A stretch of 64,000 bases of DNA. Origin: Escherichia coli. GTDB lineage: Bacteria > Pseudomonadota > Gammaproteobacteria > Enterobacterales > Enterobacteriaceae. Under the pieces are notes generated by a model. That model was given only the letters and a program-made list of their open reading frames with translations. It was not told where the DNA came from and did not search any database. The position numbers and the translations under genes are program-made. The DNA lies in NCBI RefSeq assembly GCF_009931435.1, contig NZ_CP043414.1; one strand, 5' to 3'. Shown piece by piece: positions 36,509 to 48,122 of this stretch. The stretch's first letter is position 1, and each line of letters begins with the position of its first letter.

Positions 36509-37182
36509 CAAACGTTCTGATTGTTGAAGATGAACAGGCTATTCGTCGCTTTCTGCGCACGGCGCTGGAGGGTGACGGTATGCGCGTTTTTGAAGCCGAA
36601 ACGCTGCAACGGGGGCTGCTGGAAGCGGCGACTCGTAAGCCAGATTTGATTATTCTCGATCTCGGCCTGCCAGACGGTGATGGGATTGAGTTTATCCGCG
36701 ACCTGCGCCAGTGGAGCGCGGTGCCAGTAATTGTGCTTTCCGCCCGCAGCGAAGAGAGCGACAAAATCGCCGCGCTGGATGCCGGAGCGGATGATTACCT
36801 GAGTAAGCCATTTGGCATTGGTGAATTGCAGGCCCGTCTGCGCGTCGCATTACGCCGCCACTCCGCCACCACCGCGCCCGAGCCGCTGGTGAAATTTTCC
36901 GATGTTACCGTCGATTTAGCTGCCCGCGTGATTCACCGCAGTGAGGAAGAGGTGCATCTCACCCCGATTGAATTCCGCCTGCTGGCGGTGCTACTCAACA
37001 ATGCCGGAAAAGTGCTCACCCAGCGCCAGCTTCTCAACCAGGTGTGGGGACCAAACGCGGTCGAACACAGCCACTATTTGCGTATTTATATGGGGCATCT
37101 GCGACAAAAACTGGAGCAAGATCCCGCCCGCCCTCGCCATTTTATTACTGAAACCGGTATTGGGTATCGGTTTATGCCATGA
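36505..37182 (+). CDS. kdpE: response regulator KdpE (OmpR family)
   Basis: 225-aa [36 protein letters not shown]. Confidence 0.95.
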   Translation: MTNVLIVEDEQAIRRFLRTALEGDGMRVFEAETLQRGLLEAATRKPDLIILDLGLPDGDGIEFIRDLRQWSAVPVIVLSARSEESDKIAALDAGADDYLSKPFGIGELQARLRVALRRHSATTAPEPLVKFSDVTVDLAARVIHRSEEEVHLTPIEFRLLAVLLNNAGKVLTQRQLLNQVWGPNAVEHSHYLRIYMGHLRQKLEQDPARPRHFITETGIGYRFMP

Positions 37183-37456
37183 ATTATTATTCAATAAATA
37201 CGCTTAACTAATTATTAATTTATTATTAAACCTGCCCCGAAAATTATTATTTGGCAGGTTTAATTTCTTAATGAAAATATAACCTACGAAATTGCAACAT
37301 TTAAACAACAAAACAGCATCTAATATGGCGCTATTCATAATTAACGATTTATTATTTGGGGTGTGATCGTTTTTTGTTGATCTTCTTCACAGTTTATAGC
37401 CTTTTCATGGATAGAATAACTCTACCTTCAACTGACACAGCAAAAGGTAAAGGTAA

Positions 37457-37561
37457 ATGGAAAATAATAACCGCTTAATGCCTCATATAAGGCGGACAAC
37501 CCATATCATGAAGTTTGCCCATCGTAATAGTTTTGACTTTCATTTCTTTAATGCCCGTTAG
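37457..37561 (+). CDS. speFL: ornithine-sensing leader peptide of the speF operon (34 aa)
   Basis: hand-translated MENNNRLMPHIRRTTHIMKFAHRNSFDFHFFNAR stop; too short for the ORF track. Confidence 0.8.
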   Translation: MENNNRLMPHIRRTTHIMKFAHRNSFDFHFFNAR

Positions 37562-37871
37562 TCTTCTGACTAAAGGGCACCCCAGCGTACAGGTCTCCCT
37601 GACTTTAAGCATTACAGGTTAATACCTGTATCCCTCGGTGCTCATATACTGCTAACCCTTTTAAACTCTAAATAATTCAAGTCGCAGCACTAGCAACTTG
37701 AAGTATGACGAGTATAGCCAGTTACCGGGCTGGTCTGGGTTATTGCATCTGCAAAAAGCAAACTACTGATTTATTTATCAGCGGTGGAGTTTTGCTTTTT
37801 TTCCGGCGTGATCGATTTCTCCTTTGAGAAATTGAGGACCTGCTATTACCTGAAATAAAGAGATGAACAAA

Positions 37872-40070
37872 ATGTCAGAATTAAAAATTGCCGTTAGTCG
37901 TTCTTGCCCGGATTGTTTTTCCACTCATCGTGCATGCGTGAATATTGACGAAAGTAATTATATTGACGTTGCCGCCATTATTTTATCAGTCAATGATGTT
38001 GAACGTGGAAAACTCGATGAAATAGACGCTACTGGCTATGGCATTCCTGTTTTTATTGCAACGGAAAATGAAGAACGTGTACCAGCAGAATATCTGCCAC
38101 GTATTACTGGTGTCTTCGAGCATTGCGAATCACGGAAAGAATTTTACGGACGTCAGTTAGAAACCGCCGCCAGCCATTATGAAACGCAGCTGCGCCCGCC
38201 CTTCTTCCGCGCACTGGTCGATTATGTCAATCAGGGCAATAGCGCTTTTGACTGCCCGGGTCATCAGGGGGGTGAGTTTTTCCGTCGCCATCCGGCAGGC
38301 AATCAGTTCGTGGAATATTTTGGCGAAATGCTCTTCCGCTCCGACTTGTGTAATGCCGACGTAGCAATGGGCGATCTACTGATTCATGAAGGTGCGCCAT
38401 GCATTGCACAGCAACATGCGGCTAAAGTGTTTAATGCCGATAAAACGTACTTTGTTTTAAACGGCACCTCCTCTTCCAACAAAGTGGTTTTAAACGCCCT
38501 GCTAACACCGGGTGATCTGGTGCTGTTTGACCGCAATAACCATAAGTCTAACCACCACGGGGCCTTGCTACAGGCTGGTGCAACACCGGTTTATCTGGAA
38601 ACAGCACGTAACCCGTATGGTTTTATCGGTGGTATTGATGCGCACTGCTTCGAAGAAAGTTATCTGCGTGAACTGATTAGAGAAGTTGCACCGCAACGGG
38701 CAAAAGAGGCGCGTCCGTTCCGCCTCGCTGTGATTCAGTTAGGCACCTACGACGGTACTATTTATAACGCCCGCCAGGTGGTGGATAAAATCGGTCATCT
38801 GTGTGACTACATCCTGTTTGACTCAGCATGGGTCGGCTATGAACAGTTTATTCCGATGATGGCGGACTGTTCGCCGCTGCTACTGGAGCTTAATGAGAAC
38901 GATCCGGGTATTCTGGTTACGCAATCTGTACATAAGCAGCAGGCTGGTTTTTCTCAGACTTCACAAATTCATAAAAAAGACAGCCATATCAAAGGGCAAC
39001 AGCGTTATGTACCGCACAAACGCATGAACAACGCCTTTATGATGCACGCCTCCACCAGCCCGTTCTATCCGCTGTTTGCCGCACTGGATATTAACGCCAA
39101 AATGCATGAAGGTGTCAGCGGTCGTAATATGTGGATGGATTGTGTGGTTAACGGTATTAATGCCCGCAAATTGATCCTCGATAACTGCCAGCACATTCGT
39201 CCGTTCGTTCCTGAACTGGTGGATGGTAAACCCTGGCAATCGTATGAAACAGCGCAAATTGCGGTTGATCTGCGCTTCTTTAAATTTGTACCCGGTGAGC
39301 ACTGGCATTCTTTTGAAGGTTACGCAGAGAATCAATACTTTGTCGATCCGTGCAAACTGTTGCTGACAACCCCAGGTATTGATGCACGTAACGGCGAATA
39401 CGAAGCGTTCGGTGTACCCGCGACGATTCTTGCTAACTTCCTGCGCGAAAATGGCGTAGTGCCGGAAAAATGCGATCTTAACTCCATCCTCTTCCTGCTG
39501 ACTCCGGCAGAAGATATGGCCAAACTGCAGCAACTTGTTGCCCTGCTGGTACGCTTCGAAAAACTACTGGAAGCTGATGCGCCTCTGGCGGAAGTATTGC
39601 CTTCCATCTACAAACAGCATGAAGAGCGCTACGCCGGTTATACCCTGCGTCAGTTGTGCCAGGAAATGCATGATTTGTATGCCCGTCACAACGTGAAACA
39701 ACTGCAAAAAGAGATGTTCCGTAAGGAACACTTCCCACGCGTCAGCATGAATCCACAGGAAGCCAACTATGCCTACTTACGCGGTGAAGTGGAATTGGTT
39801 CGTCTGCCGGATGCAGAAGGCCGTATCGCAGCCGAAGGTGCGCTTCCTTATCCTCCGGGTGTGCTGTGTGTTGTTCCGGGTGAAATCTGGGGTGGTGCTG
39901 TTCTGCGTTACTTCAGCGCTCTGGAAGAAGGGATCAACCTGCTGCCAGGTTTTGCACCGGAGCTGCAGGGTGTCTATATCGAAGAACATGATGGTCGTAA
40001 GCAAGTTTGGTGCTATGTCATCAAGCCTCGTGATGCGCAAAGCACCCTGTTGAAAGGGGAAAAATTATGA
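37872..40070 (+). CDS. speF: inducible ornithine decarboxylase
   Basis: start taken at MSELKIAVSRSCPDCFSTHRACVNIDES (732 aa) within ORF 37863..40070. Confidence 0.95.
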   Translation: MSELKIAVSRSCPDCFSTHRACVNIDESNYIDVAAIILSVNDVERGKLDEIDATGYGIPVFIATENEERVPAEYLPRITGVFEHCESRKEFYGRQLETAASHYETQLRPPFFRALVDYVNQGNSAFDCPGHQGGEFFRRHPAGNQFVEYFGEMLFRSDLCNADVAMGDLLIHEGAPCIAQQHAAKVFNADKTYFVLNGTSSSNKVVLNALLTPGDLVLFDRNNHKSNHHGALLQAGATPVYLETARNPYGFIGGIDAHCFEESYLRELIREVAPQRAKEARPFRLAVIQLGTYDGTIYNARQVVDKIGHLCDYILFDSAWVGYEQFIPMMADCSPLLLELNENDPGILVTQSVHKQQAGFSQTSQIHKKDSHIKGQQRYVPHKRMNNAFMMHASTSPFYPLFAALDINAKMHEGVSGRNMWMDCVVNGINARKLILDNCQHIRPFVPELVDGKPWQSYETAQIAVDLRFFKFVPGEHWHSFEGYAENQYFVDPCKLLLTTPGIDARNGEYEAFGVPATILANFLRENGVVPEKCDLNSILFLLTPAEDMAKLQQLVALLVRFEKLLEADAPLAEVLPSIYKQHEERYAGYTLRQLCQEMHDLYARHNVKQLQKEMFRKEHFPRVSMNPQEANYAYLRGEVELVRLPDAEGRIAAEGALPYPPGVLCVVPGEIWGGAVLRYFSALEEGINLLPGFAPELQGVYIEEHDGRKQVWCYVIKPRDAQSTLLKGEKL

Positions 40071-41386
40071 GTCAGGCTAAATCGAACAAAATGGGCGTCG
40101 TTCAGTTAACCATACTGACGATGGTCAACATGATGGGCTCCGGCATCATCATGCTGCCGACAAAGCTTGCCGAAGTTGGGACAATCTCAATAATCTCCTG
40201 GTTGGTGACAGCCGTAGGCTCAATGGCGCTGGCATGGGCATTCGCAAAATGCGGTATGTTCAGCCGTAAATCAGGCGGTATGGGCGGTTATGCCGAGTAT
40301 GCTTTCGGTAAATCCGGTAACTTTATGGCGAACTATACCTACGGCGTCTCGCTGCTGATTGCTAACGTGGCGATTGCTATTTCGGCAGTTGGTTACGGCA
40401 CCGAACTGCTCGGCGCGAGTTTGTCACCAGTGCAGATTGGTCTGGCAACCATCGGAGTGCTGTGGATTTGTACCGTGGCTAACTTTGGTGGTGCGCGCAT
40501 TACCGGGCAAATCAGTAGCATTACCGTGTGGGGGGTCATTATTCCGGTGGTAGGCCTGTGCGTTATCGGCTGGTTCTGGTTTAGCCCGACACTTTACGTT
40601 GATTCCTGGAATCCGCATCATGCACCGTTCTTCAGTGCGGTAGGTTCTTCCATCGCCATGACGCTGTGGGCTTTTCTTGGTCTGGAGTCTGCGTGTGCGA
40701 ATACTGATGTAGTGGAAAACCCGGAACGTAATGTGCCAATCGCGGTACTCGGCGGTACGTTAGGTGCGGCGGTGATTTATATCGTCTCCACCAACGTGAT
40801 TGCCGGGATTGTGCCCAATATGGAGCTGGCAAATTCAACGGCACCATTTGGTCTGGCCTTCGCGCAAATGTTCACACCGGAAGTGGGTAAAGTCATTATG
40901 GCGCTGATGGTGATGTCCTGCTGCGGTTCACTGCTTGGCTGGCAGTTCACCATTGCCCAGGTGTTTAAATCTTCATCTGATGAAGGCTACTTCCCTAAAA
41001 TTTTCTCCCGTGTAACCAAAGTGGATGCACCGGTTCAGGGGATGTTGACCATTGTGATTATTCAGAGTGGATTGGCACTGATGACCATTAGCCCGTCACT
41101 GAACAGCCAGTTCAACGTGCTGGTTAACCTGGCCGTGGTGACCAATATCATTCCGTATATCCTGTCGATGGCGGCATTAGTCATTATTCAGAAGGTCGCC
41201 AATGTGCCACCATCAAAAGCGAAAGTAGCAAACTTTGTTGCCTTTGTTGGTGCGATGTACAGTTTCTATGCGCTGTACTCATCCGGGGAAGAAGCCATGC
41301 TGTACGGTTCCATCGTGACTTTCCTTGGTTGGACACTGTATGGTCTGGTATCACCACGCTTTGAACTGAAAAACAAACACGGTTAA
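40067..41386 (+). CDS. potE: putrescine:ornithine antiporter
   Basis: 439-aa ORF MSQAKSNKMGVVQLTILTMVNMMGSGIIMLPTKLAE, start overlaps speF stop. Confidence 0.95.
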   Translation: MSQAKSNKMGVVQLTILTMVNMMGSGIIMLPTKLAEVGTISIISWLVTAVGSMALAWAFAKCGMFSRKSGGMGGYAEYAFGKSGNFMANYTYGVSLLIANVAIAISAVGYGTELLGASLSPVQIGLATIGVLWICTVANFGGARITGQISSITVWGVIIPVVGLCVIGWFWFSPTLYVDSWNPHHAPFFSAVGSSIAMTLWAFLGLESACANTDVVENPERNVPIAVLGGTLGAAVIYIVSTNVIAGIVPNMELANSTAPFGLAFAQMFTPEVGKVIMALMVMSCCGSLLGWQFTIAQVFKSSSDEGYFPKIFSRVTKVDAPVQGMLTIVIIQSGLALMTISPSLNSQFNVLVNLAVVTNIIPYILSMAALVIIQKVANVPPSKAKVANFVAFVGAMYSFYALYSSGEEAMLYGSIVTFLGWTLYGLVSPRFELKNKHG

Positions 41387-41468: not shown

Positions 41469-41611
41469 CAGGTGTAGGGTCCAAACGCGGTCGAACACAG
41501 CAACTATTTGCGTAATTATATGAGGCATTTGCGACAAAAACTGGAACAGGATCTCGTCCGCCCCGCCATTTCATTACTGAAACCGGTATTGGGTATCGGT
41601 TTATGCTTTGA
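41469..41611 (+). repeat. degenerate partial duplicate of the kdpE 3' end (direct repeat of 37039..37182)
   Basis: ~143 bp aligning by eye at roughly 90% identity with the last ~144 bp of kdpE, including ccaaacgcggtcgaacacag and aaaccggtattgggtatcggtttatgc; frame broken by an inserted a (tag). Confidence 0.75.
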
Positions 41612-41734
41612 AAAAAGTGGCAATGTATGGATAAAGTCATTTTTTATTCAAATATAAGGAACTTAATATTTAAAAAATGTCCCATACAATGCCTCATCAT
41701 AAATGACACCGTAGCACACAAGGAGCAAGTAGCG

Positions 41735-42970: not shown

Positions 42971-43070
42971 TGCCGGATGCGGCGTGAACGCCTTATCCGT
43001 CCTACAAAATAGTGCAAATTCAATATATTGCACCATCCTCGTAGGCCTGATGAACGTAGCGTATCAGGCT
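42971..43070. repeat. REP elements between pgm and ybfP
   Basis: tgccggatgcggcgtgaacgccttatccgtcctac and gtaggcctgatgaacgtagcgtatcaggc. Confidence 0.5.
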
Positions 43071-47387: not shown

Positions 47388-47596
47388 TGTAATACGGCGT
47401 AGACTCATGTCTACGCCGTATTAATAGATAATGCCAATCAAAATAATTGCTACAAATTTGTAACTTTTGCCGTGGTACCTGTACAATGTTCCGGTGTTCA
47501 AGTGGCCTTGCCGTTGTAAATGTAAGCTGAGCCACGTTTTTATTAACAATATTTGCCAGGGACTTGTGGTTTTCATTTAGGCGTGGCAATTCTATA

Positions 47597-47683
47597 ATGA
47601 TACGCATTATCTCAAGAGCAAATTCTGTCACTTCTTCTAATGAAGTGAACCGCTTAGTAACAGGACAGATTCCGCATGACTGA
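47597..47683 (+). CDS. uof: fur leader peptide (28 aa), overlaps the fur start
   Basis: hand-translated MIRIISRANSVTSSNEVNRLVTGQIPHD stop; stop lies 5 nt inside fur in another frame. Confidence 0.75.
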   Translation: MIRIISRANSVTSSNEVNRLVTGQIPHD

Positions 47684-48122
47684 TAACAATACCGCCCTAA
47701 AGAAAGCTGGCCTGAAAGTAACGCTTCCTCGCTTGAAAATCCTGGAAGTTCTTCAGGAGCCGGACAACCATCACGTCAGTGCGGAAGATTTATACAAACG
47801 TCTGATCGATATGGGTGAAGAAATTGGTCTGGCTACGGTTTATCGCGTACTGAACCAGTTTGACGATGCTGGTATCGTCACCCGCCACAATTTTGAAGGC
47901 GGTAAATCCGTATTTGAACTGACACAGCAACATCACCACGATCACCTGATCTGCCTCGACTGCGGTAAGGTTATCGAATTTAGTGATGATTCCATCGAAG
48001 CGCGTCAGCGTGAAATCGCCGCAAAACATGGCATTCGCCTGACTAACCATAGTCTCTATCTTTACGGTCACTGTGCCGAAGGCGATTGCCGCGAAGATGA
48101 GCACGCGCACGAAGGCAAATAA
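47676..48122 (+). CDS. fur: ferric uptake regulator
   Basis: 148-aa ORF MTDNNTALKKAGLKVTLPRLKILEVLQEPDNHHVSAEDLYKRL. Confidence 0.97.
   Translation: MTDNNTALKKAGLKVTLPRLKILEVLQEPDNHHVSAEDLYKRLIDMGEEIGLATVYRVLNQFDDAGIVTRHNFEGGKSVFELTQQHHHDHLICLDCGKVIEFSDDSIEARQREIAAKHGIRLTNHSLYLYGHCAEGDCREDEHAHEGK

Follow-up and report, generated by a model that had tools for sequence, protein, structure and literature searches.

The window, by which we mean the whole 64,000-nucleotide stretch of Escherichia coli DNA analyzed here, contains two short open reading frames (ORFs) that precede longer genes on the + strand (Table 1). The first, speFL, lies upstream of speF, which encodes the inducible ornithine decarboxylase, and of potE, which encodes a putrescine-ornithine antiporter. 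The second, uof, runs into the start of fur. An earlier note on this DNA had described a 34-codon speFL and a 28-codon uof overlapping the fur start, and had called both regulatory upstream ORFs. Translation and RefSeq agree with it on the coordinates, strand and length of speFL; uof also lies where it was placed, with an overlap of 8 nt. The regulatory assignment is likewise correct. RefSeq names the two ORFs 'leader peptide SpeFL' and 'fur leader peptide' in the closest genome and in K-12. When we aligned both peptides with their K-12 counterparts, neither a frameshift nor a premature stop appeared.

Table 1. Features of the speF and fur leader regions. Positions count from the first base of the window; elements given as candidate, predicted, putative or -like are assigned from the sequence.
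Feature	Position	Strand	Details
Candidate -10 hexamer TAGAAT of the speFL-speF-potE promoter	37412..37417	+	putative
Shine-Dalgarno region of speFL, AAGGTAAAGGT	37444..37454	+	GG at -11/-10 and -5/-4 from the AUG
speFL	37457-37561	+	34 codons and TAG (UAG); product MENNNRLMPHIRRTTHIMKFAHRNSFDFHFFNAR
Putative rut-like stretch, C-rich and G-poor	37460..37717	+	C/G 1.3-2.4 in 78-nt windows
Rare Arg codons AGG CGG (Arg12, Arg13)	37490..37495	+	identical to K-12
Predicted long-range helix, upstream arm	37528..37550	+	speFL codons 24-32
Predicted hairpin containing the speFL stop codon (RNA polymerase pause hairpin)	37552..37579	+	
Match to the pause consensus G-11 G-10 N8 (C/T)-1 G+1, GGCACCCCAGCG	37576..37587	+	regular-expression match
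Second predicted hairpin, UACAGGU-UAAU-ACCUGUA	37613..37630	+	equivalent to the Salmonella 'DS' hairpin
Short ERIC (enterobacterial repetitive intergenic consensus) element	37662..37717	+	both ends present, central core missing
Predicted long-range helix, downstream arm	37856..37883	+	speF Shine-Dalgarno UAAAGAGAUGAA, AUG (37872) and first codons
speF	37872..40070	+	732 aa, intact
potE	40067..41386	+	439 aa
Fur-box-like site, TATAATGATACGCATTATC	47593..47611	+	16/19 to consensus; spans the uof start codon
uof	47597-47683	+	28 codons and TGA (UGA); product MIRIISRANSVTSSNEVNRLVTGQIPHD
fur	47676..48122	+	148 aa; AUG inside uof, sharing the 8 nt ATGACTGA at 47676-47683

The 701 bases around speFL are 100% identical to those of E. 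coli strain 2020CK-00188, the closest genome, and the window and this strain are 98.8% identical over 24.7 kb. Gene order there is kdpFABCDE, speFL, speF and potE, then pgm and seqA (other strand), followed by ybfF, ybfE, fldA, uof and fur. In K-12 MG1655, where speFL is b4803 and uof is b4637, the gene order is the same and the orientation reversed. In distant relatives the upstream neighbors differ, and the order of speFL, ornithine decarboxylase and permease is kept.

An in-frame ATG at 37863 would lengthen the speF ORF by three codons, for a product of 735 instead of 732 aa. Because that ATG is out of frame in K-12, the likely start of speF is at 37872. The speF gene of 2020CK-00188 (L001 12673-14871) is inactivated by W455*, whereas that of the window is intact.

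Further observations concern the flanks of these genes. The 3' end of kdpE (37039-37183) shares about 91% similarity with a fragment that follows potE (41469-41612). This fragment corresponds to the K-12 pseudogene ybfI, a winged-helix fragment, and was left behind by a kdpE-like duplication. Between the ybfP and pgm regions, positions 43006-43048 of the + strand match the Rfam sRNA family ES036 (CssrF) above its gathering score (45.5 bits against 37.6), and the weak naRNA4 and MicX-like matches on either side suggest REP-type repeats.

Identity of the two leader reading frames

In this part of the window a short ORF is by itself no evidence for a gene, because 182 ORFs of at least 25 aa overlap the 14.5 kb between 35000 and 49500. 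Homology, context and substitution pattern raise speFL and uof above this background. The window peptide matches the Pfam family PF10940 (SpeFL) with 27.9 bits over residues 7-33 (cut-off 25, E=2.1e-6). It matches the SpeFL chain of a solved structure, 6tbv_SPE1 of PDB entry 6TBV, with E=1.7e-18, and the SpeFL chain of 6TC3 was matched as well. RefSeq annotates the same ORF as SpeFL both in 2020CK-00188 and in K-12, and the window form of the peptide, with Asn5 and Leu7, is WP_001312672.1. EcoCyc is reported to list both speFL and uof among its 'leader peptides'. Both ORFs are intact, already known and publicly annotated.

The strongest sign of coding comes from the differences between alleles. 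K-12 SpeFL (b4803) is MENNSRTMPHIRRTTHIMKFAHRNSFDFHFFNAR, and the window peptide matches it at 32 of 34 residues. The earlier note had put the residue differences at one or two; there are exactly two, S5N and T7L. At the DNA level 12 codons differ, ten synonymously and two non-synonymously. All ten synonymous differences are single third-position changes, including all nine that fall in codons 8-34, and the codon for T7L carries three nucleotide changes. If differences fell evenly across codon positions, ten out of ten at third positions would have a chance of about (1/3)^10. DNA identity to K-12 is 86.7% within speFL against about 67% in the flanking 37237-37828. Changes confined to third positions within flanks of such low identity therefore show that selection acts on the SpeFL peptide, and we conclude that it is under purifying selection in the + frame.

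We consider it almost certain that 37457-37561 is speFL, the cis-acting leader ORF of speF-potE, that 47597-47683 is uof, and that both act by the mechanisms to be expected from homology with K-12 and Salmonella. It is extremely improbable that the two are chance ORFs, or that the real gene at the first site is instead an antisense ORF at 37475-37612 or a 43-codon ORF at 37347-37478 on the + strand. Such readings draw on the abundance of short ORFs in these 14.5 kb, on the antisense frame being open in both the window and K-12, and on the labels 'hypothetical protein' or 'TonB-dependent receptor' that RefSeq gives to the 37347-37478 ORF. Against them, the third-position-only substitution pattern fits the speFL + frame alone, and experiments have shown that the K-12 peptide is translated and stalls ribosomes (bioRxiv 10.1101/604074). 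Read on the reverse strand, both 37457-37561 and 47597-47683 contain stops.

Both competing frames were rejected. The product of the antisense ORF differs at many residues between the window and K-12, and the + frame is for this reason the coding one. The 43-codon ORF begins with ATT in its annotated form, has about 67% DNA identity to K-12, matched no Pfam or NCBIfam family and lacks an annotated K-12 counterpart; we take it for a probable false gene call. It overlaps the candidate speFL promoter, the 5' UTR and the first 22 bases of speFL.

The value of these identifications lies mainly in checking annotation, in that two leader ORFs below a length cut-off are nonetheless real, intact and functionally characterized. 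Because they are, speF-potE and fur can be expected to be regulated here as in the textbook cases.

Elements of the speF leader and the expected ornithine switch

We compared the window with the elements that experiments have defined in K-12 and in Salmonella, where the ORF is called orf34. If the TAGAAT hexamer is the -10 element, transcription would start near 37426, 31 nt before the speFL AUG; in Salmonella, Ben-Zvi et al. found the transcription start 31 nt upstream of orf34 (PMC6386406). Window and K-12 share the conserved block TGGATAGAATA within a stretch that is otherwise about 67% identical. A scan with the sigma-70 consensus picked no speFL promoter, the TAGAAT site included. At the place equivalent to the speFL Shine-Dalgarno region of the window, K-12 has AGGAAAGG.

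The peptide consists of a sensor domain (residues 1-13) and an effector domain (residues 14-34). Herrero del Valle et al. showed that K-12 SpeFL stalls ribosomes at codons 33/34 only with L-ornithine, which occupies a pocket formed by 23S rRNA together with Pro9, Arg12 and Arg13 (bioRxiv 10.1101/604074). In their experiments, arrest was lost when His10, Ile11, Arg12, Arg13 or His16 was mutated, and deletion of residues 1-7 abolished ornithine-dependent arrest in vitro. They also reported that Asn32 displaces U2585 and blocks RF1, that the rare Arg codons 12 and 13 keep the rut site free, and that stalling masks this rut site, which in K-12 overlaps speFL, with the result that Rho does not terminate transcription (bioRxiv 10.1101/604074). 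The window peptide contains the ornithine motif as HIRRTTH (HIRRXXH, residues 10-16) with Pro9 before it, and the effector residues Phe20, Phe26, Phe28, Phe30, Phe31 and Asn32, with the stop directly after residue 34. All residues and codons found to be important in experiments are kept: His10, Ile11, Arg12, Arg13, His16, Phe26, Phe28, Phe30, Phe31, the AGG-CGG pair and the UAG.

Around and beyond the stop codon, the predicted RNA folds resemble those of the known systems. The segment 37542-37640 folds with -31.4 kcal/mol, compared with -18.6 kcal/mol for shuffled sequences (z=-4.3). The hairpin containing the stop codon and the second hairpin downstream are both predicted in the window, in K-12 and in a more distant relative (L011). 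Two compensatory changes fit these folds: in the stop-codon hairpin, a U-A pair is replaced by G-C in L011, and the closing pair of the second hairpin is U-A in the window and C-G in both K-12 and L011. In the most distant relative (L009), fold prediction made neither hairpin evident. The Salmonella 'DS' hairpin, to which the second hairpin is equivalent, governs alternative folds and sensitivity to RNase G (PMC6386406).

The pause-consensus match has GGCACTTCAGCG at its place in K-12. In the window, a premature 3' end is predicted at 37586, 25 nt past the speFL stop codon; in Salmonella, Rho gives rise to a short transcript of 157 nt (PMC6386406). The C-rich, G-poor stretch is compositionally rut-like and spans the 3' part of speFL together with some 150 nt beyond it, and we regard it as a putative Rho site. 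When the whole leader is folded to its minimum free energy, a helix between speFL and the speF ribosome-binding region is predicted for window and K-12 alike. [quoted passage not shown] In our searches Rfam offered no curated family covering the speF leader or uof. The single match in the speF leader, isrH at 37660-37716, scored 18.2 bits against a gathering score of 45.

By these measures the closest known counterparts of the window leader are K-12 SpeFL (b4803; 6TBV/6TC3) and Salmonella orf34. The shared features are 34 codons, AGG-CGG at codons 12-13, a UAG stop and the HIRRTTH motif, and residues 8-34 are identical to those of K-12. The stop-codon hairpin, the pause motif and the downstream hairpin are also alike, as is the position upstream of speF-potE and downstream of kdpE. 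Window and K-12 differ in S5N, T7L, the ten synonymous codons, the flanks of about 67% identity and a speFL-speF spacer of 310 rather than 257 nt, and the window type is the commoner of the two.

Taken together with the published work, these elements suggest how the leader would operate. RNA polymerase would pause after transcribing the stop-codon hairpin. At low ornithine, the ribosome would terminate at the UAG and depart, the C-rich rut would be exposed, and Rho would end transcription some 25 nt beyond the stop. When ornithine is high, a single L-ornithine would be trapped between the 23S rRNA and the sensor hairpin of SpeFL (Pro9 and HIRRXXH), the Phe-rich effector domain would compact, Asn32 would displace U2585, and RF1 would be blocked. 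Stalled and queued ribosomes would then mask rut, and transcription would run into speF-potE. Translation of speFL would, in addition, open the long-range helix that sequesters the speF ribosome-binding site. What we observe in the window itself are the sequences, their conservation, their context and the hairpins predicted from them. The stalling and Rho steps, like the RyhB and coupling steps considered below for uof, we infer from published experiments on near-identical sequences. Ornithine-dependent arrest and relief of Rho termination have been demonstrated for the K-12 and Salmonella alleles and should also occur with the allele of the window.

The leader peptide TnaC, which responds to tryptophan in the tna operon, works in a similar way: a ligand-dependent block of release at the leader stop masks rut and prevents Rho termination. 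TnaC is unrelated to SpeFL in sequence, has another ligand and another binding pocket, and belongs to no common family.

Two deeply diverged speF leader types in E. coli

Comparison with K-12 revealed an abrupt local divergence. Identity is about 67% in 37237-37828 and 81-87% in the first 600 bases of speF, against a local background of 95-99%. The diverged segment, 37237-38428, comprises the stretch between kdpE and speF together with some 600 bases at the start of speF, and it exists in two deep types in E. coli. Among 5426 complete E. coli genomes, the window-type leader was present at 80% coverage or more in 3317 (61%) and the K-12-type leader, at the same coverage, in 1700 (31%); about 400 genomes had neither. 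We sampled four window-type genomes, at 97.3%, 96.4%, 96.0% and 95.1% identity, and all encode WP_001312672.1 and have the 310-nt spacer. The closest genome, 2020CK-00188, carries WP_001312672.1 too.

In some genomes with the K-12-type leader (L008 226-330, L007 and search hit H31), codon 8 of speFL is interrupted by an IS1 element. From this disruption gene callers yield a chimeric 'SpeFL' that starts MNKLESLP, is read from the IS1 end with an ATC start, and was found on 18 contigs. In the strains bearing this IS1, speFL-dependent induction of speF should be lost.

The longer spacer of the window type is due to the ERIC element, which the K-12 leader lacks. A 73-nt query across the element matched 25,061 places in 5,425 of the 5,426 genomes; the median genome has 4 such places. 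Elsewhere, copies follow yafP and a YadA-like gene, and another, of full length, separates dxs from yajO. This dxs-yajO copy has 21 of 22 bases in common with each of the standard PCR primers ERIC1R and ERIC2. The window element aligns with both ends of this copy, and about 70 nt in the center are missing; the central conserved inverted repeat of ERIC1R and ERIC2 is absent from 37662-37717. It is thus like ERIC/IRU repeats in that both terminal segments match full-length copies and in being dispersed and intergenic, and it differs in having no central ~70-nt core with the ERIC-PCR primer sites. Because both ends match and the core is absent, we class 37662-37717 as a short, internally deleted ERIC-derived repeat and not as a full ERIC. 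The sub-threshold isrH match coincides with it and probably reflects the shared repeat. The element forms a predicted hairpin of its own in the variable 'ring' part of the leader, and is found at this speFL-speF site in about 61% of complete E. coli genomes. In the literature that we searched, no paper linked ERIC elements to the speF leader.

The two types raise the question of whether they also differ in function, through the peptide or through the RNA. For the peptide, the earlier note had suggested that its N-terminal substitutions could matter for ornithine sensing. A material change in ornithine sensitivity or arrest strength by S5N and T7L seems to us quite doubtful. Both residues belong to the sensor hairpin (residues 1-13), deletion of residues 1-7 abolishes ornithine-dependent arrest in vitro (bioRxiv 10.1101/604074), and T7L replaces a polar residue by a hydrophobic one through three nucleotide changes. 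However, residues 5 and 7 lie outside HIRRXXH and outside the pocket residues Pro9, Arg12 and Arg13. An exhaustive search of 1.84 billion representative proteins yielded 14 relatives, which together with the common E. coli alleles give the consensus MENNNRxMPHIRRTTHIMKFAHRNSFDFHFFNAR. Asn5 is thus the consensus across the family, and at position 7, alone among the N-terminal columns, no residue holds a majority (L, T, K, F and A occur). In the same family alignment H10, I11, R13 and H16 are invariant, and position 14, the first X of HIRRXXH, varies among T, K, V and I. The N5/L7 peptide was present on at least 1000 contigs in an exact look-up, and in all five genomes sampled from the leader type that 61% of complete E. 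coli genomes carry. The N-terminus of the window peptide appears typical of the family, with S5/T7 of K-12 as the less common form; if either form is derived, it would be that of K-12. Point-mutant data for SpeFL residues 5 or 7 did not turn up in the literature searched. A quantitative effect on sensing may exist, because the N-terminal hairpin as a whole is required for arrest, and the comparisons lend no support to altered sensing.

For the RNA, it is unlikely, if somewhat less so, that the window-type leader regulates speF differently from that of K-12 by way of its short ERIC element, its spacer of 310 rather than 257 nt and its divergence of ~33%, through Rho read-through, RNA decay or sequestration of the ribosome-binding site. 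The hairpin predicted for the ERIC element falls in the region where Salmonella has a 'ring-like' structure with an effect on decay by RNase G (PMC6386406), and in our reading of the sequences the synonymous changes in the His29 and Phe31 codons give the window a more perfect predicted match of speFL to the speF Shine-Dalgarno than K-12 has. On the other hand, the elements with a demonstrated role are all conserved and all lie outside the ERIC insertion, and the spacer is naturally variable in length, with 257 nt in K-12, 310 nt in the window and some 379 nt in Salmonella, and a range of 258-310 nt among further relatives. The reading we prefer is a conserved switch in both leader types. We mention only as a tentative and rather improbable idea that the majority leader may set a different ornithine threshold, basal Rho read-through or mRNA stability, in which case natural E. 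coli would contain two functionally distinct speF switches.

The slightly new angle here is that of the population: speF has two deeply diverged leader types, and the K-12 type that has been studied is the rarer one. Mechanistic work on E. coli speFL has all been done on the K-12 leader and so on the minority type. Quantitative K-12 behavior, such as the ornithine threshold and the effects of arginine and RNase G, is worth checking in the ERIC-bearing type before it is extrapolated to most E. coli.

The uof leader and the start of fur

At uof, window and K-12 do not differ. Its 87 bases are 100% identical to K-12 b4637, and the identity extends over 47531-47723, with the nearest difference at 47530. 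It thus includes 66 nt upstream of uof, the 8-nt overlap with fur and codon 6, which is UCA (TCA, 47612-47614). The peptide matches the NCBIfam equivalog NF011344, 'fur leader peptide', over residues 1-28 of 28 with 85.2 bits (cut-off 71).

According to secondary accounts, translation of uof drives that of fur, and the small RNA RyhB represses uof and thereby fur. The UCA serine codon is described as read by a MiaB-dependent tRNA, which has been invoked for iron-responsive decoding. One paper places a Pfur promoter inside uof and states that RyhB does not bring about decay of the longer uof-fur transcript, and the published picture of uof is not entirely uniform. Applied to the window, these accounts suggest that translation of uof would be coupled to that of fur through the 8-nt overlap. 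It would be repressed by RyhB and would depend on MiaB-modified tRNA-Ser reading the UCA of codon 6, and Fur synthesis would thereby follow the supply of iron.

Our duplex predictions for RyhB and uof did not stand out from controls. A simple calculation for the RyhB seed gave -14.5 kcal/mol, compared with a mean of -14.5 kcal/mol for shuffled sequences, and 241 of 500 shuffles were at least as good; with full-length RyhB, the predicted duplex was indistinguishable from those with shuffled targets. The assignment of a putative RyhB site to uof rests on sequence identity with K-12, in which regulation by RyhB has been demonstrated, not on the duplex calculation.

We scanned the window with a Fur-box consensus sequence. 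The Fur-box-like site at the uof start was the only such match in the 64 kb, and 100 shuffles gave none. A site at this place fits autoregulation by Fur. In 2020CK-00188, Uof (L001 22397-22483) carries S14P; the Uof of the window is identical to that of K-12.
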